A stretch of 64,000 bases of DNA, from positions 11,688-75,687 of IMG/VR virus record IMGVR_UViG_2866474162_000001; one strand, written 5' to 3'. The stretch's first letter is position 1; the number at the start of each line of letters is the position of its first letter. Shown here in pieces: positions 1,256-62,148 of the stretch. The DNA comes from a virus. Lineage: Duplodnaviria > Caudoviricetes. A model generated the notes under the pieces. The model saw nothing but the letters and a program-made list of their open reading frames with translations. It searched no databases and had not been told where the DNA came from. The position numbers and the translations under genes were made by a program.

Positions 1256-1265
1256 TTCACGTGGA
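1256..1265 (+). promoter_or_regulatory. TTCACGTGGA start-associated box (copy 1 of 7)
   Basis: Identical 10-mer at 36251, 36910, 38027, 38588, 59551 and 62129. Confidence 0.7.
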
Positions 1266-1281
1266 AGAGGAGAGAGCGGAA

Positions 1282-2916
1282 GTGACAGCAGCAGTGAAGG
1301 CGCGGCCCCGGGGCAAGAAGGCCCCCTACCTCGCGCAGATCGACCCGCGGGAGCTGGTCGCGCACCCGACCAACCTCCGCACCCAGCTCGGCGACCTGAC
1401 CGAGCTGCGCGCCTCGATCGCCGCGAGCGGCGTTCTGCAGGCGCTGACCGTCGTCCCCGAGGACGGCGGCATGCGGATCGTCGCAGGGCACCGCCGGGCG
1501 GCGGCGGCCGTCGAGGCGATCGAGGCCGGCGAGTGGCCCGACGGCACGCCGCAGACGGTGCCGTGCCTGGTGCGGCCCGACATGGAGGGGATGGCCCCCG
1601 CGCAGGTCGTCGCCATGCTGATCGAGAACGACCAGCGCGCCGACCTGACCGAGAGCGAGCGGGCCGCCGGATACGCGCAGCTGGAGCTGTTCGGCCTGGA
1701 CGTCGCCGAGATCGCGCGGCGGACCGGCCGCACGCAGAAGCACGTCAACGCGGCGTTGAAGCTGACGAAGCTCGGCGAGGTCGCCACCGGCGCGGCCGAC
1801 GCCGGCAAGCTGACCCTGGAGGACGTCGCCGAGCTGGAGCAGTTCGAGGACGACCCGAAGGCGATGGAGCGCATCCTCAAGGGCGTCGAGAGCGGCTGGG
1901 GCGTCCGGCACCGCGTGCAGGAGGAGAAGCGCAAGCGCGACGACAAGAGCGCGACCGAGACGCTGACCGAGGAGCTGACGGCGGCCGGCGTCCGGGTGTT
2001 GAAGAAGCCGAAGGACTGGCCGTGGAACTGCGCGATGACCAAGGTCGAGGACCTGACCGACGCCGACGACCAACCGATCGACGTCGAGCAGGTCAAGACG
2101 CTGGAGGGGTTCGGCGCGATCATCGAGGGCTCGTACGGGAACATGCGGGCCGTCATCGTGTGCGAGGACCCCGACGCCCACGGGTACAAGCGCACGAAGT
2201 GGACGCAGTACAAGAGCCCCGCGCAGAAGGTCGCCGAGGAGCTGGCGAAGCGGGAGGCCGAGGAGCGGCGGCAGAAGCTGCTGGACGCCGGTGAGGTGCG
2301 CCGCCGGTTCCTCGTCGAGCGGTGGGGCAGCGCGAAGGCGGCGAAGACGCTGCTGGTCGACGCGATGCGCGCCGCCGTGGTGATGCCGGGCTTCTACGAC
2401 CGGGCCGAGGAAGAGCTGGTCGCGGCCCTGGCCGGCGGTGACCCGCGCGACGGGCAGACCGCCGGGATCGACCGGCTGAACCGGCTGCTGGTCGCCCGGT
2501 TCGTCGCCGCGCACGAGGCCAACACGTCGACCGTGGCGGCCGGGCGGTACTCCAACCGGAACCACCTGGTGCTGCCGTGGTTGAACCGCCTGGTGGCCGA
2601 GGGCTACGAGCTGTCGGAGACCGAGAAGACCTGGCACGCCGAGCTGGTCGAGGAGGAGGAAGAGCGGCAGCGGGCGCTGGAGCAGGAAGAGGCCGAGGCG
2701 GCGGCCGAGCTGGAGTACGACGACGCCGAAGGCTACGTGGAGGACGCCGAGGGTGTGCGGCCGATCGAGGACGTGCAGCTGCCCGAGGGCGACGTCGAGC
2801 CGGCGGCCGAGCCGGACGACGACGCCGACGGCGACGGCGAGCCGCAGGCTGAGACGGACCCGTGCCCGGACGCCGACCTGGACGCGGCCGAGCCCGAGGC
2901 CGGCGGCGAGCAGTGA
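1282..2916 (+). CDS. ParB/RepB/Spo0J-family protein with long acidic C-terminus
   Basis: HPTNLR...LRASIAASGVLQALTV...IVAGHRR...LIENDQRADL ParB boxes then HTH (IARRTGRT); GTG 1282 follows a purine-rich RBS. Confidence 0.85.
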   Translation: MTAAVKARPRGKKAPYLAQIDPRELVAHPTNLRTQLGDLTELRASIAASGVLQALTVVPEDGGMRIVAGHRRAAAAVEAIEAGEWPDGTPQTVPCLVRPDMEGMAPAQVVAMLIENDQRADLTESERAAGYAQLELFGLDVAEIARRTGRTQKHVNAALKLTKLGEVATGAADAGKLTLEDVAELEQFEDDPKAMERILKGVESGWGVRHRVQEEKRKRDDKSATETLTEELTAAGVRVLKKPKDWPWNCAMTKVEDLTDADDQPIDVEQVKTLEGFGAIIEGSYGNMRAVIVCEDPDAHGYKRTKWTQYKSPAQKVAEELAKREAEERRQKLLDAGEVRRRFLVERWGSAKAAKTLLVDAMRAAVVMPGFYDRAEEELVAALAGGDPRDGQTAGIDRLNRLLVARFVAAHEANTSTVAAGRYSNRNHLVLPWLNRLVAEGYELSETEKTWHAELVEEEEERQRALEQEEAEAAAELEYDDAEGYVEDAEGVRPIEDVQLPEGDVEPAAEPDDDADGDGEPQAETDPCPDADLDAAEPEAGGEQ

Positions 2917-3674
2917 GCGTGACCCCTGCGGGTCGGCCGGAGGCGCGTACCGAGCTGGTGCGCGCCTCCGGCGCCGGCCCGACCGGCAGCGCGGAGACGC
3001 CCGTGGACGAGGAGCTGCTGCGCGGGACCTGCCCGGCCTGCCAGGCGGTGATGGGCGAAGCGCACCGCGACGACTGCGACGTGGCCGAATGCCTGGCCAC
3101 CGGCCGGAAGCGCATATGGTGCCGGGCGCAGCCCGACACCGCAGGCCACGACTGCGGCCGCGCGGACTGGGCCGGCCGGTGGCCGGCGCACGCGGAGGCC
3201 CGCGAGTTCGGCTGGCACGTGCGCTGGGACACCGAGGCGCGGAAGTTCGTGCGCTGCGCCCCCGACGTGGAGGGCTCCGGGCCGGACCTGTCGCGGCTGT
3301 ACGAGCACGCGCGGTGGGATCCGGCGGCGCGGCGTTGGGCGCGGCGCCGGGCGGTGCTGTTCTCCCGGGCGGTGCGCGGCGGCCGGGCCACATTGGAGGA
3401 GCTGACGAAGCGGGCGCAGCGGTATTGCGCGGAGCAGGGCTACGAGGTGGTCGGCGAGCACGTCGGCACCCGCGGCTGGCGGGCGGCCGTCGCCGACGTC
3501 GACGACGGCAAGGCCGACGTGGTGGTGGTGCCGGCGCTGGACCGGCTGGGCCTCGGCAAGCAGGTGTTCGAGCGGGTCGCGGCGGTACGCCGTGCCGGCG
3601 GCGACATCGCTGGCCCCGGCGTACAGATCGACGCGGACGGCCGGCTGGTCGCCGGCACGACCGGCGAAAAGTGA
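2913..3674 (+). CDS. Cys/His-rich phage protein fused to a degenerate serine-resolvase-like domain
   Basis: GTGA overlap with parB; N-terminal CPAC/HRDDCD; C-terminal AVLFSR...YCAEQGYEVV...DVVVVPALDRLG. Confidence 0.6.
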   Translation: MSVTPAGRPEARTELVRASGAGPTGSAETPVDEELLRGTCPACQAVMGEAHRDDCDVAECLATGRKRIWCRAQPDTAGHDCGRADWAGRWPAHAEAREFGWHVRWDTEARKFVRCAPDVEGSGPDLSRLYEHARWDPAARRWARRRAVLFSRAVRGGRATLEELTKRAQRYCAEQGYEVVGEHVGTRGWRAAVADVDDGKADVVVVPALDRLGLGKQVFERVAAVRRAGGDIAGPGVQIDADGRLVAGTTGEK

Positions 3675-3686
3675 GGAGCGTTCACG

Positions 3687-3983
3687 ATGGAGCGAGAGAC
3701 GCAGGTCATCCTGGCGTGCCCGCCGACGAACATCAACGAGCTGCTGGCCGGCATGGGCGTGCCCGAGTACGTGCCGAGCGTCGACCACAGCCTGGCGCAG
3801 TGCGCGGACTGCGGCACGGACATGTGGGTCGGCCCGAACCAGCAGGCGGCGGCGTCCCGGGCGTCGGGCGTGACCCTGCTGCTGTGCATGACGTGCTCGA
3901 TCGCGGAGACGCACCGGCGCAGCGGCCCGGCGGCGCTCGGGCACCTCGGCGGCGGCGGAGGGAGGCCGCGGCTGCCGAGCTAG
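3687..3983 (+). CDS. Small Zn-finger-like hypothetical protein
   Basis: RBS GAGGAG; CADC and CMTC motifs; GC3-biased codons. Confidence 0.7.
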   Translation: MERETQVILACPPTNINELLAGMGVPEYVPSVDHSLAQCADCGTDMWVGPNQQAAASRASGVTLLLCMTCSIAETHRRSGPAALGHLGGGGGRPRLPS

Positions 3984-4029: not shown

Positions 4030-4136
4030 ACCGGGGCGGGTCACAGCGAGGCCGTGGCCCGCCCTTCGCGTTCTGTCGCCCGCGCGGCTTAGGCTTGCGG
4101 GTCGCATTGCAACGGCGTCCAAAGAGACGGTGAGCC

Positions 4137-5144
4137 ATGAACGCAGTCATCGACCTCGGCAACGGGGACTCCCTTCAGATGGAGCCAGCCCGCCGCGCCT
4201 TTCACCTGTATCCGGGCGCCGGAGGCGCACAGATCGAGGTGACGCTCAGGATCAGCAAGACGCATGACCTGGCGCCGGGCATCGCGTACCGGGTGAGCGC
4301 TCGGATGTACGTCGAGGACAACATGCGCCGGCAGCGGATGCTGTGCACCCTGGACGCCGCGAACCTCGTCACGCCGCTCGTCCGGGCAGGCGATGTGCAG
4401 CTGTCGGGCTTCGTCACCGACGAGCAGTTGCGCGTCGTCGAGCAGCTGCGCGCAGGCGGGGACCTGTGGGTGAACCTGAAGCTGTCGGTCTCGTCGGTGG
4501 AATGGAAGGCGGACTCTGAGGCGGCGGACTCGGACTCGGCGGAGCTGATGCTGACCGCGCGGGGGCGCGCCGAGCAGAAGGCGCGTCTGTCGGGTGAGGT
4601 GGTGTATCGGTCGAACGAAGAACCCCGGCTGACCGCGCTGCCGCCGGCGGGAACCAAGGTGGTGTTCGAGCGCCCGTTGCAGAAGCAGCGGACCGGTGAC
4701 CTGAGGTTTGACATCAATGCCGGCGAGTGGGCGGCGCAGATGGCCGCGGTCGAGGCGGGGACCTTCGTCGAGCTGCTGGTGCCGCTGGCTGGCGGCGCGG
4801 ACTACGCCGGCGCGGTGGCGCTGCTGCGCGAGGCGCGCGAGTTGTTGCGGGAGGGCAACGTCGACGCGTCGATCGGTCAGGCGCGTAAGGCTCTGGAGCA
4901 GGCGCGCAAGGAGTACGGCACGCAGAAGCTGTACGAGGCCGCGACGAAGAAGTCACCGCGGACTCGGGCCCTCCCGGAGCGCTGGGCGATCATGGTCGAG
5001 GACCTGTACTCAACGATGAGCGGCGCTGCGCACAACGATGAGGTGACGAAGGAGTTCACCTACTCGCAGGAGGACGGCGCAATGCTGATCACGGCGACGG
5101 CGGGGATGCTCAAGCGGTTGGCCGCTGACCGCCAGACGCTGTAG
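4137..5144 (+). CDS. Hypothetical protein (helical C-terminus, possibly HEPN-like)
   Basis: 335-aa ORF with coding bias; C-terminal LYSTMSGAAHND. Confidence 0.65.
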   Translation: MNAVIDLGNGDSLQMEPARRAFHLYPGAGGAQIEVTLRISKTHDLAPGIAYRVSARMYVEDNMRRQRMLCTLDAANLVTPLVRAGDVQLSGFVTDEQLRVVEQLRAGGDLWVNLKLSVSSVEWKADSEAADSDSAELMLTARGRAEQKARLSGEVVYRSNEEPRLTALPPAGTKVVFERPLQKQRTGDLRFDINAGEWAAQMAAVEAGTFVELLVPLAGGADYAGAVALLREARELLREGNVDASIGQARKALEQARKEYGTQKLYEAATKKSPRTRALPERWAIMVEDLYSTMSGAAHNDEVTKEFTYSQEDGAMLITATAGMLKRLAADRQTL

Positions 5145-5525: not shown

Positions 5526-5785
5526 ATGGAGCGCGAGATCTGTCCTCGCTGTGTGTGCCTCGGACGTGGCTCTTTGGCCTGCGCGGGGACCGCGGTCTGC
5601 GAGCCGCCCTGCAGGGCTGAGACCATCTGTGGGTCGGGCTGGAGGCTGAGACGGGCTCGGGAACGAGCCGATGCCCGTCGCTGGTACTTATTCGTCCACT
5701 AACGAAGCATGTCCTCCGACATGCTCCTCGCCGCATTGAGGTTCCCCCGATAGCGTGGAGGCCAGGCCTTAAGGGATAGAGGGTC

Positions 5786-23949: not shown

Positions 23950-25083
23950 TCAGACCTTCCGCTCGGCGGACTCGATGTCGATGGTGCGGTCCAGCAAACC
24001 CGAGAGCAGTGCCACGCGTGCCTGACGGAGACGTGCCGCCTCAGCACGGAGGGCGGCCACCTGCACGTCCATCGCGTCAGCCATTCCTGAGATGCGCTCC
24101 TGCTCATCGCGAGGCGGCACGGGCATAACGATCTTATTGAGGTTCGCGGCGGAGATGCGAACCACCTTGGTCTCGCTCGTGAACCGGCGCTTCTGGTGCT
24201 GAAACAGGGGTGAAGCGAAGAAGTACGAGACGAACTTTGGGTCAAGATCATGGTGGAAGATGAAACAGTCATCGTGAACCGCCACATCGTCATCACCCAA
24301 CCAAGCAACAGCCTTGCCGACGTCCTCGACGTTCTCGCTCGTCCCAGCGATTACCACATCGCCGGGTTGTGCCAGGCGCATCGAGTCGCGGAAGCTCTCG
24401 GGCAGGTACGTCACCGTGTGTGTAGCCGACGCTCCGTAGTCCGTGTAGATCTGGCCGTAGTGGATGCATCCCAGGCCGGACTGCACATAGTCGCTCTTCA
24501 CGAACCGGCGGCCGCGGGTGAGGGTTCCAGCGTTCGACAACGGAGCAGACGACCATCCTTCACCGCCCCGGGTGAGTACGTGTCCCAGAGCAGCGTTACG
24601 GACTCGAAGGAGGCTGTCTGCCTCAGCCTCGAGCGCGGTGATCTGGTCATCGACGGCACCGATGATCTCGACGATCCGCTCCTGCAACGGCACCGGCGGC
24701 AAGGCGACACGAATCTCGTAAGCCCGGCTGCGGGTCAGACCAGGAACTCCGGTCTGGGTGGCGAGCTCCGTCAGCTTCGCATTGACGAGTAGGTGGTAGG
24801 CGAACTCCATTCCTATCTGGGCGGAGTCCTTGATCAGCACATAGAAGGCGGTGTCGATGGGGGAAAAATCGCCCTCGCTGAAGGTGACGGTCCCTGAGGA
24901 ACCGGTCCCCTTCCGTCCAACGATAACGCCGGGTCCCTTCACCATTGCCCGAGAGTGATAACCGACGATGCCGTTGCTCCCGTAAACGGGGAATCCTTGA
25001 CCGTCCCGAGCGTTCTCAGGTAGCGGCTTGCCGTACTCAAGGGTCAGCAACTCACCGACGGTCGTCTGCCGCCACTCACTCAT
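23950..25083 (-). CDS. hsdS: Type I RM specificity subunit
   Basis: Two TRDs each followed by a conserved PP(V/R)xxQxRI helix; lies between hsdM and hsdR. Confidence 0.9.
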   Translation of the reverse strand: MSEWRQTTVGELLTLEYGKPLPENARDGQGFPVYGSNGIVGYHSRAMVKGPGVIVGRKGTGSSGTVTFSEGDFSPIDTAFYVLIKDSAQIGMEFAYHLLVNAKLTELATQTGVPGLTRSRAYEIRVALPPVPLQERIVEIIGAVDDQITALEAEADSLLRVRNAALGHVLTRGGEGWSSAPLSNAGTLTRGRRFVKSDYVQSGLGCIHYGQIYTDYGASATHTVTYLPESFRDSMRLAQPGDVVIAGTSENVEDVGKAVAWLGDDDVAVHDDCFIFHHDLDPKFVSYFFASPLFQHQKRRFTSETKVVRISAANLNKIVMPVPPRDEQERISGMADAMDVQVAALRAEAARLRQARVALLSGLLDRTIDIESAERKV

Positions 25084-26649
25084 CGAAGCCGTCGATTCCG
25101 GCGGCCGCCAGGGCGTCGAGCATCCGCTTTTCGGTCTTCTGGCGCTCGGCGCGGGCGAGGTTGTAGGTGTTGATCAGAGTGTCCAGATTCTCCTGCTTTG
25201 CGGCGCTCTGCTTAATGTACCGGCCGATGTTGAGGTCGTACCCGGCCTGAACGATCTCCGTGATGGGGACGAACCGTGCAGCCAGCCCGCCATCGCCATC
25301 CGGGTCCGCCGGGTGCCCGTCTGTGTCGAAGCTCGTGTGGTAGGCGGTCACGACGTCGGCGATGTCTGCGTCGGTGAGGATGTTGCGGTTCTTGGCCTTG
25401 GTGAACCGCTTGGAGGCGTCGATGAACAGCACCCCGTTCTTGCGCTCGTCGGTCTTGGTGCCGGGAGCGCGGAACACGAGGATGCAGGTCGGGATCGTTG
25501 TGCTGTAGAAGAGGTTCGCAGGCAGCCCGATCACGGCTTCCAGGAGGTCGTCGTCCAGGACGCGCTTACGGATCGAACCTTCCTGGCCGCTGCGGAAGAG
25601 GACTCCGTGAGGCAGGACAACGCCAGCGCGCCCCTTCTTCGGGTCCATGCTGGCGATCATGTGCTGCACGAACGCCCAGTCTGCCGCCGACTGCGGCGCG
25701 ATACCGCCGATGGCGCGCGGGTCCTTTGTCCAGGGCTTCCACTTCAGGCTGTAGGGCGGATTAGCGACGATCACATCGAACTGCGCGATAGACCCGTCCG
25801 GCTTCTTGAAGCGTGGTCCTTCAGGGTGTCGCCGACCTCGACCTGGAACTGGGTGAGGTTGTGCATGAAGAGGTTCATGCGTGCCACACCCGCGGTGTCC
25901 GGTACGGCCTCCTGCCCGTACAGGCGGAGCGTGTAGCCACGCCCGCCGTGAGTCTTCAGGAGGTTCGCGGAGGCGATGAGCATGCCGCCCGACCCGCAGG
26001 TCGGGTCGTACACCGACTCGAAGCCCTTCGGGTCTAGGACCTCGACGATCAGCTCGACGACCTCGCGCGGGGTGAAAAACTGGCCGGCGCGGGTGCCGGA
26101 CCCATCGGAGAACCGCTTCAGCAGGTACTCGTACGCCCCACCGAGCACGTCGTGGGACACGTTGCCCTCGTGCATTTTCGGGGTGCGGTCCATCGCCTGC
26201 ATGACCGCCGCCAAAACCTCCCCCGACAGCACCTCTTCAGAGGTCCAGGTCATGGACCCGAACAGGCGGGAGAACTTGTCAGGGTTCGCCGTCTCGATTG
26301 CTTGCAGGGAGGCGCGGACCCGCTGGCCGAGGCCGGGCTGGGTGATGGTGGCGAGGATGGACGACCAGGAGGCGCGACGCTGCTGGACGGTGCCGGGGTG
26401 GATGAACGGGATCTCGAACGATTGGTAGTCGCGGTACTCGATCTCGTGGGCTTCCTCGGCGGAGAGGCCGTCCAGGCCCTCGTTGTCGGCCAGGAACTCC
26501 TGGTGGTGGTGCTCCCAGGTGTCCGACAGGTACTTCCAGAACATCAGCGGGAAGACGACCGAGGAGTATTGCGCTTCGGGCATCGCCACGCGCAGCTCGT
26601 CGGCGGCGTCCCACAACCGGTTCTCGATCTCCTGCTGCGTCACTGCCAT
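25076..26649 (-). pseudogene. hsdM: Type I RM methyltransferase split by a 1-nt frameshift at about 25815
   Basis: 5' ORF 25771-26649 has GQFFTP and YDPTCGSGG; 3' ORF 25076-25774 has ANPPY and GVLFR; adding one G to GG 25815-25816 gives a continuous GDTLKDPRFKKPDGSIAQFDVIVANPPY. Confidence 0.88.
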
Positions 26650-35778: not shown

Positions 35779-35830
35779 GTACATAAAAGTTGTATGGGGG
35801 AGTGAAATTCGCATACAATGAATATGTACG
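35779..35830 (+). promoter_or_regulatory. Early promoter with tandem RTACA-N7-TGTAY operators
   Basis: GTACA-TAAAAGT-TGTAT and ATACA-ATGAATA-TGTAC, 34 bp apart; TTGTAT-N18-TACAAT. Confidence 0.78.
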
Positions 35831-35860: not shown

Positions 35861-36370
35861 ATGGAGAAGCGGGTCAACGAGCTGGTCGCCGAGTTCGGTG
35901 TCGAGGCCGAGGGTGCCGACCGGTACGGGCTGGTCGCCCAGCTGGCGGCGCGGGTGGCGGAGGCCGAGCGGGAGCTGGAGCGGGCGGGCGCCGAGCTCAC
36001 CGGGGCGACCGAGGACGCGATGGTCAGCGCGAAGGCGGGCGACCTGCGCACCGCGGTGCGCGGCGACCTGCTGGCCGCCGTGAGCGACAAGGCGGCGGCG
36101 TTCGACGCGGCGCTGATGAAGGTGGCCGAGCGGCGGACCGCCCTGGCGTACGTCGCCGAGAGCGTGAAGGCCAGCCGGGCGAACTTGAGCAAGCCGATGC
36201 GCGCCGGCCGGGGGAGGCCCGGCCGGCGCGGCCGTTTGAGACGAGGGAGATTCACGTGGAGATCGCCGAGCAGCAGGTCGCAGAGGTTGCCGCAGCGCCG
36301 GAGCTGGCCGAGAAGGACCGGGTGCGCTGGGAGGCCCCGTGGGAGCCGACCGAGCGGACCGGCACCGTGA
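35861..36370 (+). CDS. Coiled-coil hypothetical protein (3' end doubtful)
   Basis: AGGAGG RBS; plausible coding to about 36185, after which it reads through a hairpin into the next gene. Confidence 0.55.
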   Translation: MEKRVNELVAEFGVEAEGADRYGLVAQLAARVAEAERELERAGAELTGATEDAMVSAKAGDLRTAVRGDLLAAVSDKAAAFDAALMKVAERRTALAYVAESVKASRANLSKPMRAGRGRPGRRGRLRRGRFTWRSPSSRSQRLPQRRSWPRRTGCAGRPRGSRPSGPAP

Positions 36371-36522
36371 TCCAGGTCCGCGACGGCATGGTGTGGATCC
36401 AGCAGGACGACGCCGACAGCACGTGGGTGACCGCGCGGGAGGTGGCGGCGGTGCGCAAGCGGCTGTGCGGCAGCTGCTTCTGCGAGCTGCCGGCGTCGGG
36501 CGTGTGCGGCAACTGCTGCTGA
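36256..36522 (+). CDS. Small protein with C-terminal Cys cluster
   Basis: CGSCFCELPASGVCGNCC; start GTG lies inside a TTCACGTGGA box. Confidence 0.65.
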   Translation: MEIAEQQVAEVAAAPELAEKDRVRWEAPWEPTERTGTVIQVRDGMVWIQQDDADSTWVTAREVAAVRKRLCGSCFCELPASGVCGNCC

Positions 36523-36552
36523 CCGAGAGAGACGAGAGAGAGGGAGCTGACC

Positions 36553-36834
36553 GTGAGCATCGAGCTGTTGGAGACCGAGCCGACCGCCGACCAGTGGGAG
36601 GTCGTCGCGCTGTCCGAGGTGGAGGACGGCGACGTCCTGTCGTTCGACTTGGCGGCGTTGGCCGAGCGGCGACACGAGAGCGTGCCGCGCGTCGACTGGA
36701 CGCGGGTGATGGAGGAGGCCGCCGCCGTGGAGAGCATGGACGAGCTGGGCGAGAGCGTGCGGGTCGACTTCTACGACCTGGCCTACCCGACGGTGGTGGG
36801 CGTGCCCGAGATGCAGGTGTTGCGGCTGGTCTGA
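36553..36834 (+). CDS. Hypothetical protein
   Basis: AGGGAG RBS; GC3 bias. Confidence 0.65.
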   Translation: MSIELLETEPTADQWEVVALSEVEDGDVLSFDLAALAERRHESVPRVDWTRVMEEAAAVESMDELGESVRVDFYDLAYPTVVGVPEMQVLRLV

Positions 36835-36927
36835 GCCGCACCGAGCGCCCCCGCAGCCGACGTGGCTGCGGGGGCGCTGCCGTTCCCGCCGGCGGGTAGC
36901 CGCCGGCAGTTCACGTGGAGGAAGAGC

Positions 36928-37929
36928 ATGACGACAACGACGGTGGCCCGGCGCGCGAACGCCGTGCCGTCCGATCCGCGCGAGCACGCGCGGGCGATCG
37001 CGGAGGCGGTCGACGAGGCGTGGCACAGCCGGTACGGCGGCTCGCGGATCGAGGTGCCGATGTCGGTGGTGGCCGTCCTGGCGGTGCTGGCGCGGGAGGC
37101 GCCGGACCCCGACCAGCTCGACCGGGTAGGCGAGATGGCGGAGCGCCTGGACCACGAGGGGTTCTGGCTGCTGATCCAGCGGCTGTGGTGCGAGTTCGCG
37201 GCGCTGAGGCCCGACCTGAACCCGCGGACGAAGCACCTGTGGTCGTGGATCGACGACGAGCCGGACGAGACGACGCAGCGGGCGATCCACGCGGTCGGCC
37301 AGGCGGCGTTGCGGCGCGGGGTGCTCGGCCGGTTCGGGCCGGACGGGTGGGGCGACTACGACCTGCTGGGGGTGCTGCTCCAGCAGATGAAGAGCCACGG
37401 CGGGCGGAAGGGCATCGGGCAGTTCCTGACGCCGGTGGACGTGACGGAGCTGATGGGCCGGATCGGGGGGCCGAAGGAGGGCGACCGGATCCTGGAGCCG
37501 TGCGCCGGCACGGGCACGATGCTGCTCGGCGCGGCCCGGTCCATGCGGGAGAAGGGCCTCGACCCGACGGCGTGCGAGTGGTGGGCGAACGACCTGGATC
37601 CACTCGCGGCGGCGCTGTGCGCGGTGAACGTGCACCTGTGGGGGCTGGGCTGGCGGGTGGTCGTCGGCTGCGGCGACGGGCTGCTCGACCAGTGGATGCA
37701 CGAGGCCCTGGAGCACCGGCAGATCGCGATCGACGAGATGCGGCGGGCGTGGCAGGTGGCCATGCAGATCCGCGCGGTGCGGACGGTGCTGGAGCTGCCG
37801 TGGCCGGAGAGCCCGCTGGAGCGGCACATGCGGAAGGCGCGGCCGAAGCCGCCGCCCCCGCCGCCGCCTGCGCCGGACTCGTCCACGTTCGACGCGGACG
37901 CGGTGTTCCGGCAGGGCCAGCTGTTCTGA
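36928..37929 (+). CDS. HsdM-like N6-methyltransferase-family protein lacking NPPY
   Basis: GIGQFLTP and ILEPCAGTGTML present; no (N/D)PP(Y/F); ends QGQLF. Confidence 0.75.
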   Translation: MTTTTVARRANAVPSDPREHARAIAEAVDEAWHSRYGGSRIEVPMSVVAVLAVLAREAPDPDQLDRVGEMAERLDHEGFWLLIQRLWCEFAALRPDLNPRTKHLWSWIDDEPDETTQRAIHAVGQAALRRGVLGRFGPDGWGDYDLLGVLLQQMKSHGGRKGIGQFLTPVDVTELMGRIGGPKEGDRILEPCAGTGTMLLGAARSMREKGLDPTACEWWANDLDPLAAALCAVNVHLWGLGWRVVVGCGDGLLDQWMHEALEHRQIAIDEMRRAWQVAMQIRAVRTVLELPWPESPLERHMRKARPKPPPPPPPAPDSSTFDADAVFRQGQLF

Positions 37930-37964
37930 CTGCCGGTTGTGTGACGCGCTACACGGCCCCCCGC

Positions 37965-38016
37965 GTACATAGAACCTGTACGCAGAAGAGTCGATCACAT
38001 ACAATGAATATGTACG
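37965..38016 (+). promoter_or_regulatory. Early promoter with tandem RTACA-N7-TGTAY operators
   Basis: GTACA-TAGAACC-TGTAC and ATACA-ATGAATA-TGTAC, 34 bp apart. Confidence 0.78.
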
Positions 38017-38043
38017 TCCTGCCTTGTTCACGTGGAGGTTGAG

Positions 38044-38460
38044 ATGGCAGAGAGCACGGTGCAGCCCGGCAAGAGCGCCGCGAGCGGCGACGACTGCGGG
38101 TGGTTCAGCTGCCGCGACGAGAACGACTGCTGCAAGCACTGCGGCGCGCACATCGCGGACCCGTGCGACCCGACCTGCAAGCACTACGACGGCGGGCCGG
38201 CCGACGAGCGCGACGCCAGGCCGGACGAGGAGGAGCCGCCGGTGACCATCATCGTCACGAGCTGGAGCGGCGGGAGCGTGCGGGTGCTGGGGACGCGCGA
38301 GGCCCTGGAGGAGTACGCGGCGGCGAGGGTCGCGTGGCGGTACCGGGAGCAGGTCGTGGAGAAGATGCTCGCCTGGCTGGCCGACGGCGCGCCGTCGCCG
38401 TACGCGTACGCGGCCTGGCACGGCGAGACGGAGTTCTGGTCGGTGGACGCGGCCGCCTAG
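38044..38460 (+). CDS. Cys-rich hypothetical protein
   Basis: GGAGG RBS after a TTCACGTGGA box; CCKHCGAH...CDPTC. Confidence 0.65.
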   Translation: MAESTVQPGKSAASGDDCGWFSCRDENDCCKHCGAHIADPCDPTCKHYDGGPADERDARPDEEEPPVTIIVTSWSGGSVRVLGTREALEEYAAARVAWRYREQVVEKMLAWLADGAPSPYAYAAWHGETEFWSVDAAA

Positions 38461-38605
38461 TGGCTGCGCAGGCGGGGCTGGGCGGGTGCCCGGCCCCGGT
38501 GCGGAGTTCCTAGCGGGCTCTGGCTGTCAGGTCGCTATTGACGATTGCGGCCGGACAGAGCAAGGTAACTGTCCGAGTAAGACCCGGTTCACGTGGAGGT
38601 AAACC

Positions 38606-39154
38606 ATGGGTCTACGCGCGCTGGTCGGCACCGAGGGTGCCGACGGTGTGTACCTGGCACGGCACGTGCAGCACGACGGCTGCCCGACGATGGTCGTCCC
38701 GGCCCTGTCGGTGCTGCTGCACGAGCTGTGCGGCCACAGCCCGGAGCGGGCGGCGGCGGTGCTGCTGCAAACCGACTGGTCGCGGCTGTACGCCGTGCCG
38801 GGCACCGGGCCGACCGGTCACGCGGTCGGCGTGCCGTCCGAGGGCTACCCGGTGCAGACCGGCCGGATCGCCGAGGCCCGCGCGGGCGACCGCGAGTGGG
38901 CGTACCTGTTCGGCGGCCACCGGCTGCACGTCTACCTGGGGGTGTTCCCCGAGCGCGGCCCGAAGCGCTGGGAGGCGTGGGCGTGCTGGTCGCTGCACGA
39001 GCTGGGCGACCTGTCGCAGCTGGACCTGCTGGAGGTCCAGAAGGCGGGCTACGCGGCGCAGTGGCGGGCGTCCGACTACCGCGGCTACATGGAGGCCGTC
39101 CGCGAGGCGGCCCGCGACTCGACCCGCATCCAGCTGATGGAGGCGGGCCGGTGA
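38606..39154 (+). CDS. Phage hypothetical protein (paralogue A)
   Basis: RALVG...QHDGCP...REWAYLF...LHVY. Confidence 0.7.
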   Translation: MGLRALVGTEGADGVYLARHVQHDGCPTMVVPALSVLLHELCGHSPERAAAVLLQTDWSRLYAVPGTGPTGHAVGVPSEGYPVQTGRIAEARAGDREWAYLFGGHRLHVYLGVFPERGPKRWEAWACWSLHELGDLSQLDLLEVQKAGYAAQWRASDYRGYMEAVREAARDSTRIQLMEAGR

Positions 39155-39657
39155 GGGCGCTGGTGGGGCAGTTTGCCCCGGGCAGCCAGTGGTACCGGGC
39201 CCGGCTCGTCGAGCTGGAGGGCCAGCCCAGCTGGACCCTCGCGCAGATGCGGGCGATGTGGGACCGCAGCTTCCAGCGGAACACGGCGGCGATGGTCGAG
39301 GTGCTGATGCACCGGCACTGGTCGGTGCTGGCGAACACGCACTGGCCGGCGCAGGCGGTGTCCGAGCGGCGGCCCGACTGGACGTACGTCTGCGGCGTCG
39401 GGCGCGGCTACAAGGACGAGATCAGCAGCCCGGCGGCGGTCGGGCTGATGGGCGCCGACCAGCCGTTCGAGGACGAGGGCTGGGCGTACCTGTGGGGGCA
39501 CAAGCTGGGCGCGCTGCATGTCTACGCGGCGCACGGCGGCCGGTGGCACCACCTGGCGACGCTGCCCGCCGACGTGTGGGCGGGCCTGACGGAGCAACTG
39601 GTGGTCGATGTGGAGGCCAGGTTCTGCTGGCTGGAGCGAGAGGAGAAGGCGGCGTGA
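39151..39657 (+). CDS. Phage hypothetical protein (paralogue B)
   Basis: GTGA overlap; RALVG...EGWAYLW...LHVY. Confidence 0.7.
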   Translation: MRALVGQFAPGSQWYRARLVELEGQPSWTLAQMRAMWDRSFQRNTAAMVEVLMHRHWSVLANTHWPAQAVSERRPDWTYVCGVGRGYKDEISSPAAVGLMGADQPFEDEGWAYLWGHKLGALHVYAAHGGRWHHLATLPADVWAGLTEQLVVDVEARFCWLEREEKAA

Positions 39658-40040
39658 CCGTCGAGACGAGGAAGCCGGCGAACCCGACGATCCGGACCGA
39701 GGAGTTGCGGCGCCGGGACGAGGTGCTGCTGTTCGGTCAGCTGGTGGAGATCGCCGACGTGCAGTCGGTCAAGGACTTCCCGAGCTGCGTCAACCTGGTG
39801 ATCCTGCCGCGCAACGGCGGGCAGCCGAGGGAGACGCTGGTGCCTCGGGACATGCTGCTGCTCGGGATGCGGCTGCCCCGGCTGCTGCCGATGCGCTGCC
39901 AGGGCTGCGACGGGCCGATGCAGGTGCCGGTCGACCTGGCGCAGGGCAGGCCGACGCGTGTGGTGTGCGGCCGGTGCCGTGGCCGCATCGTCGAGGGCAC
40001 GGCGCAGGTGAGGCCGTCCGCCCCGGTCGGGAGGTACTGA
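39654..40040 (+). CDS. Hypothetical protein with C-terminal Zn ribbon
   Basis: GTGA overlap; CQGC...CGRC. Confidence 0.6.
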   Translation: MTVETRKPANPTIRTEELRRRDEVLLFGQLVEIADVQSVKDFPSCVNLVILPRNGGQPRETLVPRDMLLLGMRLPRLLPMRCQGCDGPMQVPVDLAQGRPTRVVCGRCRGRIVEGTAQVRPSAPVGRY

Positions 40041-40324
40041 TGGAGAACGTGCTGGCGGCCCTGATGGCCGACAACGACGCCGACCGGGAGAATTTCCTGA
40101 ACCGGGAGGTGCTGCGGCACGCGGTGATGCGGCAGATCACCTGCGAGCGGACGGGCCAGGTCCTCGACGTCCGCACGGCGGTGATGGTGACGTGGATCCG
40201 GGGCGACAACCGGAGCGCCGTGGTGGTGACCGGTGAGGCCTGGGACGAGGTTGGCGAGAGCGTGCGGGCCAAGGTCGCGGAGCTCGGCGCGGAGCTGGAG
40301 GTGATCGACGGCCGGCAGCTGTAA
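40040..40324 (+). CDS. Hypothetical protein
   Basis: TGATG overlap; followed by the hairpin 40364-40389. Confidence 0.6.
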   Translation: MENVLAALMADNDADRENFLNREVLRHAVMRQITCERTGQVLDVRTAVMVTWIRGDNRSAVVVTGEAWDEVGESVRAKVAELGAELEVIDGRQL

Positions 40325-40363
40325 CCGGCCGAGCTGCGAAAGCCGCCAGCCGTTGGCAGTATC

Positions 40364-40389
40364 GGGGCCGTGCCTTCGGGCACGGCCCC
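40364..40389 (+). terminator. Hairpin
   Basis: GGGGCCGTGCC-TTCG-GGCACGGCCCC. Confidence 0.6.
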
Positions 40390-40410
40390 GTTCACTGTGG
40401 AGGCAGAACT

Positions 40411-40917: not shown

Positions 40918-41862
40918 ATGACCGCAGTGTGCGACACCCCGGTGAAGGGGAAGATGCTCCGGGCCACGAAGCTCGGGGTGTGCGGTGACCCGATCGTGGG
41001 CGCCGGAGGATGGCCGGTCCACGTCACGTCGAAGGGCTTCGTGAGCGTCGAGTACGCGGCCGAGGTCGACGACGGCGAGGAGATCGACCAGAAGGACGCC
41101 AACGGGGATCCGCTGGTCTACGAGCCGGCCCGGCGGCGGATCAAGCTGTACAACGTGACGGTCACCTGCGGGCGGGTCGACCCGGAGCTGTACACGCTGT
41201 TCACCGGGATGCCTGTGGTGCTCGACGAGGACGGCAACGCGACCGGCATGAGGGTCACGTCGGCGGTGAACCTCGACTCGGCGGTGGCGCTGGAGGTGTG
41301 GTCGGGCACGCAGCTGAAGAAGTGCGTGGCCGGGGCGATCCAGCGGCCGAGGTTCGGGTACTTCCTGCTCCCGCAGATCATCGACGGGCAGGTCGGGGAC
41401 TTCACGATCGAGAACGGGGCGGCGAGCTTCACGCTGACCGGCAAGGCGATCGAGAACCCGGGCTGGGGTGTCGGGCCGTACGACGTCTACCTGCGCAAGG
41501 CGGGCGTCGAGGCGCTGATGGACCCGATGGGCGACCAGGACCTGCTGCACCTCGACTGGACGTACCTGCCGCCGCCGGCGCCGACGTGCGGCCTGACCGC
41601 GCGGCCGCCGGACGGCACGGTGGTGGCGGACCCGACGGACGCGACGAACATGACGGCGCAGTTCACCGCGACGTACGTGCCGGCCGCGCCGAACGAGGCG
41701 TTCTCGGTGGATTGGGGCGACGGGGCGTCGTCGGCCGGGCCGGCGGCGGACGCGACGGTCAGCCACCAGTACGCGGCCGCCGGCACGTACCTCATCACGG
41801 TCACGCACACGGCGAGCGGCGCTCAGCGGTTCAAGTCGTTCGTCGCCCCGGCCGGCGGCTGA
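40918..41862 (+). CDS. Major tail protein with C-terminal PKD/Ig-like domain
   Basis: MLRATKLGVCG...VELEVW-like core; VDWGDG...VSHQYAAAGTYLITVT PKD motif. Confidence 0.8.
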   Translation: MTAVCDTPVKGKMLRATKLGVCGDPIVGAGGWPVHVTSKGFVSVEYAAEVDDGEEIDQKDANGDPLVYEPARRRIKLYNVTVTCGRVDPELYTLFTGMPVVLDEDGNATGMRVTSAVNLDSAVALEVWSGTQLKKCVAGAIQRPRFGYFLLPQIIDGQVGDFTIENGAASFTLTGKAIENPGWGVGPYDVYLRKAGVEALMDPMGDQDLLHLDWTYLPPPAPTCGLTARPPDGTVVADPTDATNMTAQFTATYVPAAPNEAFSVDWGDGASSAGPAADATVSHQYAAAGTYLITVTHTASGAQRFKSFVAPAGG

Positions 41863-49852: not shown

Positions 49853-50722
49853 TCAGGCGTCGGCGGCCACCAGGTCGGCCGCCTTCTGGATGAGGTCCGC
49901 GCTGGCCTCGGGGGACAGCGCGGCGTCACGCAGCTGGTCGAACAGCCGCGCGTACCGCTGCGCCTCCTGGGCCTCGGTGACCAGCAGGTCGGTCGTCACG
50001 GTGTCGACGGCGACCAGCGTCAGGTCCTCGGGGTCCGGGTAGGCGTACAGAGAGAACGGCGAGCGTGGGACGTACCCGCGTCCCAGCCGGGCGTCAACCG
50101 GCAGTATGCGGACGCTGACGTTCTCCCTGGTCGTGGCCAGATCGAGCAGGTGGTGCAGCTGCTCCCGCATGACGGCGGGCGGCACGGGCAGCCGCTCGAT
50201 CGCCTGCGGTTCCAGCACGACGTCGTACTCCGACCCGTCGGGGCCGGAAACCTGGAGCTGCCGGCGCATCCGGCCGGCGACGGTGCCGCTGAGGTCGAAG
50301 TCGGCTCCGTCGTCGAGCGCGACCTGGCCCCGGTGGCGGGCGTACGCCTCGGTCTGGAGCAGGCCGGGCAGCAGCGAGTTCTGGTACTCGCGGATCGCGC
50401 GGGCGCCGGCCTCGATGTCGGCGGTGCGGGCCTGCCGGTCGCCCATGGCGGCGTACTTGGCCTCGGTCCACCAGCCCTTGGCCAGGCCATCCCGGGCGAC
50501 CCGCTGGAGCGCCCGGTAGCGGTCATCGCTTTCGGGCAGCAGCACGTCGAGGATCCGCAGGATCGTGTCGAGCGGCCGACGTTCGCCGTTCTCCACCTTC
50601 GACACCGCGGTGCGGTCCAGGCCGGCCTCGCGGCCGAGCACCGCGCCGGTCATGCCGGACGCCTCCCGCAGCTCGCGGATGGCGCGCCCGAGACGAAGAC
50701 GTCGGGCAAGGGGGCTGATCAC
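49853..50722 (-). CDS. XRE-family HTH regulator with DUF5753 domain
   Basis: LGRAIRELRE...VSKVENG; LLPGLLQTEAYA, RMRRQ, VMREQLHHL. Confidence 0.9.
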   Translation of the reverse strand: MISPLARRLRLGRAIRELREASGMTGAVLGREAGLDRTAVSKVENGERRPLDTILRILDVLLPESDDRYRALQRVARDGLAKGWWTEAKYAAMGDRQARTADIEAGARAIREYQNSLLPGLLQTEAYARHRGQVALDDGADFDLSGTVAGRMRRQLQVSGPDGSEYDVVLEPQAIERLPVPPAVMREQLHHLLDLATTRENVSVRILPVDARLGRGYVPRSPFSLYAYPDPEDLTLVAVDTVTTDLLVTEAQEAQRYARLFDQLRDAALSPEASADLIQKAADLVAADA

Positions 50723-51001
50723 GTGTGCTGCACCTCCGGGCGTTGGCACCGTGCCAGGTTGGCACGCGGCCTGCCGTGAGGGTACGCGGCGACGGAAGCG
50801 GGCGGTATGCGTGAGGCTTTCGGCTGGCCTGGCGTGGTGGCTACGCTGTGCGGCAAGACTCGGCGCGCGGGACGGGTCGGGCTCGCTGGATGAGCGCCCG
50901 CGAAGGGCTCCGGTTGCGTCACCGGAGCCCTTCGTCTGTCCGCGTAGCTATCCGGTCGCAGTAGACGACTGCGACCGTCGAAACTGGCCTACGCTGGGTG
51001 C

Positions 51002-59488: not shown

Positions 59489-59510
59489 CCGCCTGACTTG
59501 GCCTTGGAAA

Positions 59511-59548
59511 CAGCGCAGCCCCGGATCGCGAAATCCGGGGCTGTGCTG
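59511..59548 (+). terminator. Terminator ending the tail operon
   Basis: CAGCGCAGCCCCGGAT-CGCGAA-ATCCGGGGCTGTGCTG. Confidence 0.7.
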
Positions 59549-59610
59549 CGTTCACGTGGAGACACCAGCATAGCGGCCCGCGTCGACGGCGAGCAAAGCG
59601 CCGCGCCGCC

Positions 59611-59661
59611 GTACATACAATATTGACGCATGGGCCCGATTTCGATACAATGTCTTTGTAC
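59611..59661 (+). promoter_or_regulatory. Strong sigma70-type promoter TTGACG-N17-TACAAT with overlapping operators
   Basis: -35 at 59623, -10 at 59646; ATACA-ATGTCTT-TGTAC plus a degenerate box 34 bp upstream. Confidence 0.8.
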
Positions 59662-59690
59662 GTATCGCCGCCCCTATCAGGAGGTTTGGA

Positions 59691-60617
59691 GTGGGCAAGG
59701 CATTGGTCGTGGCCTGGGGTCACGAGTTCGTGGACGAAGTGGTGGACGCCCTCGGCGACGCCGAAGTGGACGTCGTGGTCGGCAAGCCGACCGTCGCGCA
59801 GTGGCGCAGAGCGCCGCTGGTGCTGATCGACGCCCGCGTGCTGACGCTGGCGGCCGGGATGCCGGCGCACCCGCGGATGGTGGTCGTCGCTCCGGAGAAG
59901 CTGGACGGTGACCGGCTGGTCGCCGCCGCCCGCGGCTGGCAGGCCGAGTACCCGGACGTGCCGGTGTACCACCTGCCGACCGGCGCGCAGGCCGTCCGGC
60001 AGTTGGTCGCCGAGGCGGCCAACGGCCAGGCGGCCGAGGTGCGGATCGGCGTGGTCGGCGGCCACGGTGGCGCCGGGGCGACGACCCTGGCGGTGGCGCT
60101 GGGGCTGGTCGCGGCCGAGGAGGGGCGGCGCACGCTGCTCGTCGACGCGGCCGGGCGTGCCGGCGTGGACGACCGGCTGGGCACGCCGGCCGACGAGCTG
60201 CGCGTGGTCGACGAGTCGTTCCAGCCGCTGCGGGCGGTCGAGCGGCACGCCGCCGAGGTGAAGGTGGTCGACCTGGACCGGGCGCTGGACGCCGGCCAGG
60301 TCGAGGTCGCCCGGCAGTGCGACATGGTGCTGCTGGTCGCCAACGCGGGGCGCAACCCGATGGCCAGCCGGCGGGTCGCCGCGAAGCTGTCCGAGCAGGG
60401 CGTGCGGTGGGCGCTGGTGCCGACGTGGATGCACGACACGGTGGCGCAGGAGATCGCCCGGGAGTTCGCGGTGCGGCTGCTGGACGAGGTGCCGCTGGAG
60501 CCGCCGTCGATCTTCTCGGACGGGCGGGTGCACCTGCTGGACCGCTGCCCTCTCCTCGACCTGGCGCGGGACCTGCTGCGCAGCGCGCCGTACGCCGCCG
60601 CCCGGGTGGCGGCCTGA
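59691..60617 (+). CDS. Ssd/CpaE-like MinD-ParA superfamily protein
   Basis: Receiver-like N-terminus; IGVVGGHGGAGATTLAVALG; TLLVDA; VVDLDR. Confidence 0.7.
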   Translation: MGKALVVAWGHEFVDEVVDALGDAEVDVVVGKPTVAQWRRAPLVLIDARVLTLAAGMPAHPRMVVVAPEKLDGDRLVAAARGWQAEYPDVPVYHLPTGAQAVRQLVAEAANGQAAEVRIGVVGGHGGAGATTLAVALGLVAAEEGRRTLLVDAAGRAGVDDRLGTPADELRVVDESFQPLRAVERHAAEVKVVDLDRALDAGQVEVARQCDMVLLVANAGRNPMASRRVAAKLSEQGVRWALVPTWMHDTVAQEIAREFAVRLLDEVPLEPPSIFSDGRVHLLDRCPLLDLARDLLRSAPYAAARVAA

Positions 60618-60634
60618 CCATCCCCGGCGGTGCC

Positions 60635-60651
60635 GTACATTGACGTTGTAC
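60635..60651. promoter_or_regulatory. Single RTACA-N7-TGTAY operator upstream of the HTH gene
   Basis: GTACA-TTGACGT-TGTAC. Confidence 0.7.
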
Positions 60652-60679
60652 GGAAACCGGCCGTGGGAGGAGAGGAACA

Positions 60680-60982
60680 GTGAAGGTGAACCAGGCGAAG
60701 TTGAAGGCGGTCACACGGCGGATCGCGGCCGACCTGATGACGCCGGGCCCGGTGGAGATCCCCTCGATGGTGGGGCTCAAGGAGCTGGTTCGCATGTTCG
60801 GCGTGAAGGACAACACGCCGTACCAGTGGCGGTCCAAGGGCCAGCTGCCCAAGGAGGACGGCGAGGTCAGCAACAACCCACAGTGGAAGCTCATGACAAT
60901 CTACGCCTGGGCCGAGAAGACCAACCGGAAGATCGTGTGGGACCCGTGGGACGTCCTCGAAGCCGACGGCGAGGCGGCGTAG
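60680..60982 (+). CDS. AlpA/MerR/Xis-like HTH DNA-binding protein
   Basis: MVGLKELVRMFGVKDNTPYQWRSKGQLP...PQW...IYAWA. Confidence 0.72.
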   Translation: MKVNQAKLKAVTRRIAADLMTPGPVEIPSMVGLKELVRMFGVKDNTPYQWRSKGQLPKEDGEVSNNPQWKLMTIYAWAEKTNRKIVWDPWDVLEADGEAA

Positions 60983-61174
60983 AGATGAGCAGCGCCGATC
61001 CCATTGCGGCCCTACACATCCGGTGTAGGGTGCCGGAAAACGCACCGACCCCGCCAGGCGGTCATCTGGCGGGGCCGAAGGTGAACCCGGAACGGAGAAG
61101 AACGGGTCGCAAGCGCATCGTACGCCAGTTCGGGCGACGGTGCGCTGGCGGCGCTGCACAGAGAGGCCGCCTGC

Positions 61175-61864
61175 ATGGTGGACCGGTGGACGGTCGAGCG
61201 CGCGGTCAGGAGCAAGGAGTGCGACCTGGAGCCTCCTGGTCGGCACCTCGTCCTGACGCTGCTCACCTGGTGCGACCCCAAGACGGCGATGATCCCCGAG
61301 CGGTTCACGCCGAGCCTGACCGATCTCCAGCACGCGACGGGCATGGTCCGGTCGACGGTCACGAAGTGGCTCAACCGACTGGAGGGCAAGGGCGGGGAGG
61401 ACGGCGAGGAGCGCCCGGAGCGCAAGTGGGTGTGGCGCGAGCGGCCGACGGTCGCGGACGCCCGGCGCAAGAAAGCGAAGACGTGCTATCGGCTGGACGT
61501 GCCGCCGGACCTTCTGCGCGTGCTCCTCGAGAAGGGGGTAGTTGGTCCGCGTGCCGGACCAGCCGCGCCCGAATCGCCCGGGTCTGGTAGTCCGGTGGAC
61601 GGACCAGTGAAGGGCCAAGTTGGTCCGGCACGCGGACTAGAGCTAGTCCGCCAGACGGACCGAGTTAGTCCGCCACGCGGACTCAATACATACAGAGAAC
61701 CAATGGAACCGGTTGGGGGCCGTACCGCGAGCGGTGTCGACCACCGGTACGTCGAGGGGCCGAACGGCGCATGTGCCCATCCCGGGTGCAGGAAGTCGGC
61801 TCCGCTGCACGGGCCCGCGCTGCGGGCCGTGCCCGAGAAGGGAAGGAGAGTGATCGGGGAGTGA
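61175..61864 (+). CDS. Winged-helix replication-initiator-like protein
   Basis: RHLVLTLL...TPSLTDLQHATGMVRSTVTKWLNRLE; an internal repeat array follows the HTH. Confidence 0.65.
   Translation: MVDRWTVERAVRSKECDLEPPGRHLVLTLLTWCDPKTAMIPERFTPSLTDLQHATGMVRSTVTKWLNRLEGKGGEDGEERPERKWVWRERPTVADARRKKAKTCYRLDVPPDLLRVLLEKGVVGPRAGPAAPESPGSGSPVDGPVKGQVGPARGLELVRQTDRVSPPRGLNTYREPMEPVGGRTASGVDHRYVEGPNGACAHPGCRKSAPLHGPALRAVPEKGRRVIGE
61543..61684. repeat. Five GTCCG-N5-CGGAC palindromes (candidate origin iterons)
   Basis: 7-bp half-sites T(A/G)GTCCG start at 61543, 61588, 61621, 61644 and 61666. Confidence 0.8.
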
Positions 61865-62109
61865 GGGTGTACCTCGCGCCGGTCGACGTCGCGCAGTGCG
61901 CGACGTGCAGCGGCGTGCTCGTGGCCGCCGGAGACGACTGGCGGCACCGCGAGGGCACGGGTTGCACCGAGCTGGCCGAGCCGGTGATCTGCCGGTACCC
62001 GGACTGCGGCCTGCCGGCCGCTGTCGGGAGCGAGGCTTGCGCGGGCTGCGCGGGTGCTTTTTCGTCGGTCGTAGGTGTCGGGTCGCAGTGCTCGGCGGCG
62101 ACCGTATAG
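61861..62109 (+). CDS. Small Cys-rich protein
   Basis: GTGA overlap; CATC, CRYPDC, CAGC. Confidence 0.55.
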   Translation: MRVYLAPVDVAQCATCSGVLVAAGDDWRHREGTGCTELAEPVICRYPDCGLPAAVGSEACAGCAGAFSSVVGVGSQCSAATV

Positions 62110-62148
62110 AATCTATGTAGGACGTTCGTTCACGTGGAAAGGAACGAC

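Follow-up and report, generated by a model that had tools for sequence, protein, structure and literature searches.

Why does one ten-letter word recur seven times in the DNA of a tailed phage, always on the same strand and mostly set against the start of a gene? The window analysed here is a stretch of 64,000 nucleotides (nt) of viral DNA (Duplodnaviria; Caudoviricetes), positions 11,688 to 75,687 of IMG/VR record IMGVR_UViG_2866474162_000001, and the word, TTCACGTGGA, is referred to below as the box. Comparison of related genomes indicates that the box is a strongly selected, lineage-specific and start-associated element. We tentatively favour, at close to an even chance, its reading as a sense-strand and probably mRNA-level operator for a phage-specific factor that would act at translation starts.

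Seven exact, co-oriented copies of the box had been reported in the original prediction, and all seven were recovered at those positions on the + strand with none on the - strand. Dinucleotide-preserving shuffles gave an expectation of 0.04 copies and a maximum of 1, close to the earlier rough chance estimate of about 0.03, and allowing one mismatch added just one further site, unrelated and on the minus strand. The flanking letters also agreed with the earlier description, with a G immediately 5′ of the word in six of the seven copies and a purine immediately 3′ in all seven, giving the consensus gTTCACGTGGAr. The one-base-insertion variant noticed at 40390 does begin there (GTTCACTGTGGA) and, as had been claimed, no copy lies within the low-GC cargo at 5.5-27 kb, which proves to be a defence island.

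The window corresponds to G000:C184:47768-111767, reaching the contig end, in a host of the genus Micromonospora. A tRNA-Leu gene at C184:37062-37148 (L107 2062-2148) is followed by a tyrosine integrase gene, and the last 27 nt of the tRNA (L107 2120-2146) are repeated directly at C220:8283-8309 (L106), a repeat that on sequence grounds marks attL and attR. Because this tRNA end recurs on C220, we take the prophage to be inserted in the tRNA-Leu gene and to extend for ~83 kb, from C184:37120 to the contig end and through C220:1-8309. The 5.9 Mb host genome contains 13 exact copies of the box, ten of them within the prophage (eight on C184 and two on C220); the other three all lie within coding sequence with a T on the 3′ side and look like chance matches. 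Four one-base-insertion variants bring the prophage total to 14 sites, all on the + strand (Table 1).

Relatives with head proteins 78-99% identical carry the box at homologous places. Five IMG/VR proviruses hold 4-8 copies each (30 forward, 0 reverse), the 10-14 sites of four full-length prophages in other Micromonospora genomes, the integrase site among them, follow one common order, and nine related prophages (643 kb) contain 70 forward and 0 reverse copies. Absence from homologous phages had been named as a result that would speak against the original prediction; copies were found at homologous positions in every related prophage examined. With the downstream gene as anchor, the canonical sites have 67 distinct orthologues, of which 65 are exact, and column identity is 0.97-1.00 across the box, 0.93 at position -1 and 0.96 at position +1, with ~0.83 in the flanks. 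Site D is exact in all 11 distinct orthologues, site F is the best conserved and site E the most degenerate among relatives, decayed forms being rare and found chiefly in the most divergent relative. What is selected is the asymmetric word, the perfect palindromes TTCACGTGAA and TCCACGTGGA occurring once each versus 70 asymmetric words in the same nine prophages, a ratio that speaks against recognition by a symmetric DNA-binding dimer.

Of 201 Micromonospora species genomes, 12 (~6%) have the 12-mer clustered in 7-10 copies on one strand, clusters in other genomes always being confined to a single strand, whereas a survey of 147 genomes representing 68 further genera of the family found no such cluster. 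A literature search for the box word returned only parS oligonucleotides and unrelated primers. In a k-mer search for other boxes among 75 distant head-protein relatives GC-rich coding words dominated, but a few other multi-copy words did appear. L031 contains six copies of TTTAGTSACTAAA, a palindrome resembling the KorB operator, L065 five copies of GAAGTGTCAAG, with an ending like that of cluster A stoperators, and L063 four copies of GAGGAGCCCA, with an ending like that of the start-associated sequences (SAS) of cluster K mycobacteriophages.

The box is found in two main registers relative to the start codon. At the class 1 sites (int, B, C, D, E, G, H and J), which close intergenic gaps of 86-257 nt on the 3′ side, the box contributes its GGA to a purine-rich, GGAGG-like Shine-Dalgarno (SD) sequence and is separated from the start codon by 6-10 nt; at int, B, C, D, E and J the box always falls within the last ~20 nt of the gap. 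The class 2 boxes (A, K and M) adjoin an SD that is distinct from them, and the GTG that they contain serves as the start codon. Site M starts with GTG in a canonical box in G302 and with an ATG created by a one-base insertion in three others including this prophage, the remainder of the word being kept in the ATG allele. Class 3 is made up of L, with 16 nt between box and start, I, which has its next gene ~60 nt away, and F, which is not at a gene start. Judged from these spacings the box would lie within the 30S footprint in both the SD and the start-codon registers, and it is inside the ribosome-binding window at about 12 of the ~14 boxed cistrons. The original prediction had placed six copies at the ribosome-binding sites or starts of early genes; the link to starts was borne out, but "early" was not, five sites (A-E, 36251-40391) being located after the major head gene and before the major tail gene; the copy at 59551 (F) is away from any gene start.

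Two kinds of element occur upstream of the box: strong GC hairpins that lack a T tract (A, B, D, E and F) and promoter cassettes (int, L, C, G and J). Hairpin and box are 0-2 nt apart at B, E and F, in keeping with the earlier remark that several copies directly follow a GC-rich hairpin, and within ~20-35 nt of each other at A and D. A 5-codon frame runs from the GTG of box F (59556-59573), and its terminal TAG is kept in six of six aligned prophages while its codons vary.

Table 1. Box sites, promoter palindromes and hairpins of the prophage. Positions are those of the window unless C184, C220 or L106 is given; aa, amino acids; GC3, GC content at third codon positions.
Feature	Position	Strand	Description
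Box int	C184:37390	+	exact; integrase gene
Box L	1256..1265	+	exact; 16 nt to GTG (1282) of 544-aa ParB-like gene
Box M	3681..3691	+	variant TTCACGATGGA; internal ATG at 3687 starts 98-aa gene
Box A	36251..36260	+	exact; SD GGGAGA abutting; internal GTG at 36256 starts 88-aa gene, GC3 0.96
Box B	36910..36919	+	exact; GGA + GG forms SD; ATG 36928, N6-methylase-like, 333 aa
Box C	38027..38036	+	exact; ATG 38044, 138-aa product of unknown function
Box D	38588..38597	+	exact; ATG 38606, 182 aa
Box E	40391..40401	+	variant TTCACTGTGGA; ATG 40411, 126 aa, gene directly ahead of major tail gene
Box F	59551..59560	+	exact; away from any gene start
Box G	62129..62138	+	exact; ATG 62149, AAA_24 / Sak4-like ATPase, 362 aa
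Box H	C220:926	+	exact
Box I	C220:3708	+	+T variant; ~60 nt to next gene start
Box J	C220:4187	+	+T variant; ParB-family gene
Box K	C220:7611	+	exact; own GTG is the start codon
TACA-N7-TGTA, window	1219-1234, 35780-35829, 37966-38015, 59646-59660, 60636-60650		
TACA-N7-TGTA, L106 (C220)	85-134, 4159-4174, 5668-5683		
TACAATGAATATGTAC before L	1219-1234	+	21 nt between its end and the box; TACAAT 31 nt before the box
TACAATGAATATGTAC before C	38000..38015	+	ends 11 nt 5′ of the box; TACAAT ends 21 nt 5′
Second palindrome before C	37966-37980		
Hairpin 5′ of A	36200..36230	+	13-bp, GC
Two GC hairpins 5′ of B	36845-36877 and 36888-36907	+	second ends 2 nt before the box
Hairpin 5′ of E	40363..40390	+	12-bp, GC; last base adjoins the box
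Hairpin 5′ of F	59511..59548	+	16-bp; end of tail-gene block; 2 nt before the box
Promoter 3′ of F	59623..59651	+	sigma-70-type TTGACG-17-TACAAT, ~60 nt 3′ of the box; serves unboxed gene 59691-60617
TATAGA 5′ of G			18 nt upstream
T-tract terminator 5′ of G	62035-62055		

In the favoured reading the box would act in cis as a sense-strand signal, most likely carried by the mRNA, for one phage-specific trans-acting factor, a protein or possibly an RNA, which would dock on it and gate initiation co-ordinately at the first cistron of each separately controlled + strand unit, perhaps also setting the fate of the mRNA 5′ end. We infer that RNA rather than DNA is read at the box, that such a trans-factor exists and that the output is translational. 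An mRNA-level operator is favoured because the orientation is strict, the word asymmetric and its position at the SD fixed in long gaps, and because the box itself serves as SD or start codon. An RNA-level element was among the suggestions of the original prediction, and strict co-orientation, together with the way the box adjoins the SD even in gaps as long as ~250 nt, appears to favour this or another sense-strand element, but a translation enhancer working through rRNA pairing found no support, complementarity to 16S rRNA being at chance.

Several observations weigh against a sense-strand operator. Site F is away from gene starts, behind a 16-bp hairpin and ~60 nt 5′ of a promoter, and site I is similarly distant (~60 nt) from the next start. 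The box is near-dyad symmetric (4/5 pairs; either T2>C or G9>A would make the DNA a perfect palindrome) and appears to equal the core of chromosomal parS, and sites read in double-stranded DNA more typically have such properties. No phage gene was recognised as encoding an RNA-binding protein, and no shared RNA fold was found around the boxes, which are paired at some sites and free at others. Extended pairing to 16S rRNA was rejected, the 3′ tail pairing no further than GGAGG; the best internal 16S pairing, also rejected, covers 9/10 positions with two G-U pairs, and ~1.5 such matches are expected by chance. As RNA the sense-strand word is fully self-complementary if a U2-G9 wobble is allowed (-11.5 kcal/mol), a property that we regard as a curiosity.

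A second repeat family is associated with promoters. TACA-N7-TGTA palindromes, often in the form TACAATGAATATGTAC overlapping the -10 element, occur 12 times on the + strand versus 0.1 expected, and a ~70-bp tandem cassette starting GTGACnCGCTnCACGG occurs three times. The cassette is also present on the more distant contig L022, and an IMG/VR search with the promoter word returned only the same lineage and chance matches in AT-rich contigs. From their sequence these are probably repressor-controlled early promoters. The box follows 3 of the ~9 cassettes and is missing from the other 6, so promoter and box are independent modules, the box adding a separate layer of control.

The box may alternatively be a DNA site. 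A monomeric or otherwise asymmetric phage DNA-binding protein on the double-stranded box could block RNA polymerase in an orientation-dependent, stoperator-like manner, silencing lytic units in the lysogen or timing them in infection. An asymmetric word in ~14 intergenic, transcription-co-oriented copies is what is seen in cluster A and R4-type phages (PMC6550527, PMC10276819), the boxes at int, L, C, G and J lie 18-45 nt 3′ of -10 elements and those at B, E and F right after hairpins, and site F would suit a block at the end of the late block. A roadblock gives no reason, however, for the box to abut the SD in nine of nine long intergenic gaps. The true operator of stoperator systems overlaps a promoter, but no box covers any part of a -35 or -10 element; the promoters have their own palindromic TACA-N7-TGTA operators, and known stoperator words are unrelated to the box (PMC5559632). 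No L5 gp71-like repressor was detected among the open reading frames (ORFs) tested, the minus-strand ORFs having no match to this type in PHROGs, NCBIfam and PDB sequence searches, although distant homology is possible. We consider a directional roadblock unlikely, if still a serious candidate.

The hairpins that precede a number of boxes would suit a rival reading as an RNA-processing or termination-linked signal, whereby the box would mark the cut or end of polycistronic transcripts, the upstream RNA keeping a protective hairpin and the downstream cistron gaining a defined 5′ end by the SD; in an alternative form the box would reload an antitermination factor. None of the box-linked hairpins, whether adjoining the box (B, E and F) or a little further off (A and D), has a T tract, and site F, without a downstream cistron, would fit. 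T4 RegB cuts GGAG-type targets, and GGAG is present in most box copies. Set against this, int, L, C, G and J follow promoters rather than hairpins, a cut in the box at class 2 sites would part the SD from the start codon, and an antitermination site 3′ of a hairpin cannot help polymerase past that hairpin. Processing of either kind strikes us as rather improbable.

The likeness to parS has to be considered together with the three ParB-family genes of the integrated prophage (window 1282-2916, L106 4205-5293, here ParB2, and L107 7957-9468), which, because the prophage is integrated, need a role other than plasmid partition. The box is presumably the central 10 bp of Bacillus subtilis parS, and it shares 9/10 of the host parS core. 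ParB2 (C220:4205-5293) has ParB_N (1.8e-26) and HTH_ParB (3e-15) domains and GERRWRA and is 40% identical to the host ParB, and two of the ParB-family genes are themselves boxed (L and J). ParB2 also has a Cys/His-rich C-terminal tail (CTWEGH...CPVCQH), unusual for a ParB. A host parS was rejected as the identity of the box, the six perfect GTTTCACGTGAAAC sites all being on contig C177 with none in the phage. We give little credence to the idea that a ParB-family CTPase has been repurposed to read an asymmetric parS-derived word at translation starts, as a directional genome-wide expression switch for which the box would be a degenerate, half-symmetric parS. About as little goes to the proposal that one of the three proteins is loaded onto the box and, like KorB, acts as a regulator or organiser of the genome. 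The asymmetric word exceeds the perfect palindromes 70:1:1 and is oriented 70:0, its flanks are without symmetry, the recognition helix and GHAR region of ParB2 differ from those of chromosomal ParBs, and the TACA-N7-TGTA palindromes would make better candidates for a ParB-type site. Outside the lineage the nearest ParB2 homologues, two proteins of 48-49% identity, belong to a box-free element (L162-L165, G679:C4:545001-625000), a level of identity at which the comparison of box and ParB2 co-variation is uninformative. None of the conclusions draws on the unpublished genomes G382, G386, G365, G720, G357, G652, G612 and G393. That element has a promoter word of its own, TATGATTTAGATATAA, in seven co-oriented copies, and a loosely conserved TCACCnCCAC between promoter and SD.

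A scarcely credible alternative is that the shared 10-12 nt are a recombination linker only, offering microhomology for cassette exchange with no role in expression. Alignments between relatives do show gene-content swaps at or next to boxes C and E and in the A-B interval, with breakpoints at most ~25 nt from C and E in G002, L010 and L011, and in L011 the box travels with the gene 3′ of it, in G002 with the hairpin 5′ of it. Most breakpoints lie away from boxes, however, 10 nt is very short for homologous exchange, and a linker would leave unexplained the SD and start register, the strand bias and the exactness at D and G, where both flanks are syntenic in all relatives. The boundary for cassette shuffling proposed in the original prediction was right as to the swaps, but shuffling looks like a by-product at most because replacements are bounded by intergenic DNA in any case. 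Least credible is a promoter element for a phage-specific RNA polymerase holoenzyme, rejected on geometry: the box does stand before genes that come first after a hairpin, where transcription could usefully start anew, but it overlaps the SD or start codon, a transcription start 6-8 nt 3′ would remove the SD, the distance from box to start varies between -5 and +17 nt, with two sites beyond 60 nt, no upstream sequence is conserved from site to site and no sigma-like gene was seen. An ECF-type -35/-10 arrangement using the cGTT at the box edge was also rejected, no GGAAC-like -35 being found by eye at a fixed distance.

Genes preceded by a box encode the integrase, the 544-aa ParB-like protein, the true ParB, the AAA_24 ATPase, a DUF2637 protein, the N6-methylase-like protein and several small proteins of the head-tail interval, and all ORFs 3′ of boxes have a GC3 of at least 0.95. 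Genes on the minus strand, including the lysis genes and an XRE-DUF5753 regulator, have no box. HTH proteins are encoded at 49853-50749 and 60680-60982. A search of the ESM Atlas with a boxed 163-aa protein gave no usable match. The structural genes of the prophage include those for the major head protein (32735-34444), the major tail protein (40918-41862), a Mu-F-like head protein and tail proteins, and an endolysin gene is also present. Just 5′ of the window are the large terminase gene and, near it, an Acb2/Tad1-like gene (L107 9660-9950), a predicted sponge for anti-CBASS/Thoeris signals; a tRNA-Gly (L107 6625-6698) and a short-chain dehydrogenase gene also lie within the prophage. The cargo island, missing from the relative G004, contains an IS3 transposase, an ATP-dependent DNA ligase, a WXG100-domain protein, a 1252-aa NACHT NTPase and a Type I restriction-modification system, the HsdM of which is split between two ORFs (25771-26649 and 25076-25774). 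Pieces of a serine recombinase lie far apart: an ORF at 2862-3674 has a weak Resolvase catalytic-domain match at its C-terminal end, and another ~70 kb away (L106 2670-3635) has Recombinase and zinc-ribbon domains without the catalytic domain. Upstream of box A, at 36181-36190, the sequence reads aacTTGAgc here and aacTGAgc in relatives. The gene from 35861 stops at this TGA before the hairpin in relatives; here the extra T, either a real frameshift or a sequencing error, abolishes the stop and the frame continues through the hairpin and box A to 36370.

A number of known systems resemble the box in part. T4 RegA is a single factor that acts on the initiation regions of many phage mRNAs, but its sites are loosely conserved and always cover the AUG, unlike the box, and no RegA-like gene was detected in the prophage. 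With parS (GTTTCACGTGAAAC) and its ParB proteins the box shares a CACGTG-centred core, 9-10 of the central 10 bp and the presence of ParB-family CTPase-type genes in the element, and with KorB-OB of RK2 multiple dispersed sites near regulated genes. parS is palindromic, however, spans 14-16 bp and functions in either orientation, whereas the box is asymmetric and in one orientation, and conservation does not extend to the outer positions of parS. The stoperators of cluster A mycobacteriophages and R4-like Streptomyces phages (e.g. GGTGGCTGTCAAG and TGTGCAAGTGTNGC; PMC6550527, PMC9283540, PMC10276819) are, like the box, asymmetric, intergenic, multi-copy words of temperate actinophages, mostly co-oriented with transcription. 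They are 13-14 bp long with 20-30 copies per genome; the box has a conserved 12-nt core and 11-14 sites per genome, all co-oriented. The sequences are unrelated. The stoperator word overlaps the early lytic promoter as its operator; the box does not, the promoters carrying a different palindrome, and its juxtaposition to the SD is much tighter.

The closest parallel is with the SAS and extended SAS (ESAS) of cluster K mycobacteriophages, which have a 13-bp consensus, GGGATAGGAGCCC, with at most two mismatches (PMC3203893, PMC12699233). First described in 2011, SAS are still regarded as of unverified role in a 2025 survey of 188 cluster K genomes (PMC12699233). Like the box they are short, exact, asymmetric words with partial outer symmetry, present in 7-19 copies per genome in one orientation, a few nt before starts and overlapping the SD; they are kept across subclusters before unrelated genes, are absent from the host genome and often have inverted repeats upstream. 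SAS stand 3-7 nt before starts, and the box similarly stands 6-10 nt before them at int, B, C, D, E, G, H and J; A, K and M overlap the start, and F, I and L deviate. About half of SAS are preceded by 17-bp imperfect inverted repeats (the ESAS), whereas the upstream partners of the box are ordinary GC hairpins or promoter palindromes that differ by site and do not form one box-tied family. The host genus differs, SAS are restricted to the non-structural right arm while the box is also found at five head-tail-interval sites, the box is used as SD or start codon and two of its sites are off starts. The sequences are unrelated, as the original prediction had recognised: TTCACGTGGA, of 10-12 nt compared with 13, shares only GGAG with GGGATAGGAGCCC.

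If one factor does read the box, the integrase, two ParB-type genes, a recombinase-type ATPase and several virion-region genes would be controlled together, giving convenient access to the lytic programme of a prophage that about 6% of the sampled Micromonospora species carry. The box should be the easier element to study, with its two registers, natural one-base-insertion alleles and cistron-less site F, and the same promoter cassette with and without a box provides natural controls. The box is probably a docking site for a phage-specific regulator. By its sequence and placement we regard it as a new member of the SAS/stoperator class of actinophage repeats, and as a second start-associated example, unrelated to SAS in sequence and from a different actinobacterial genus.

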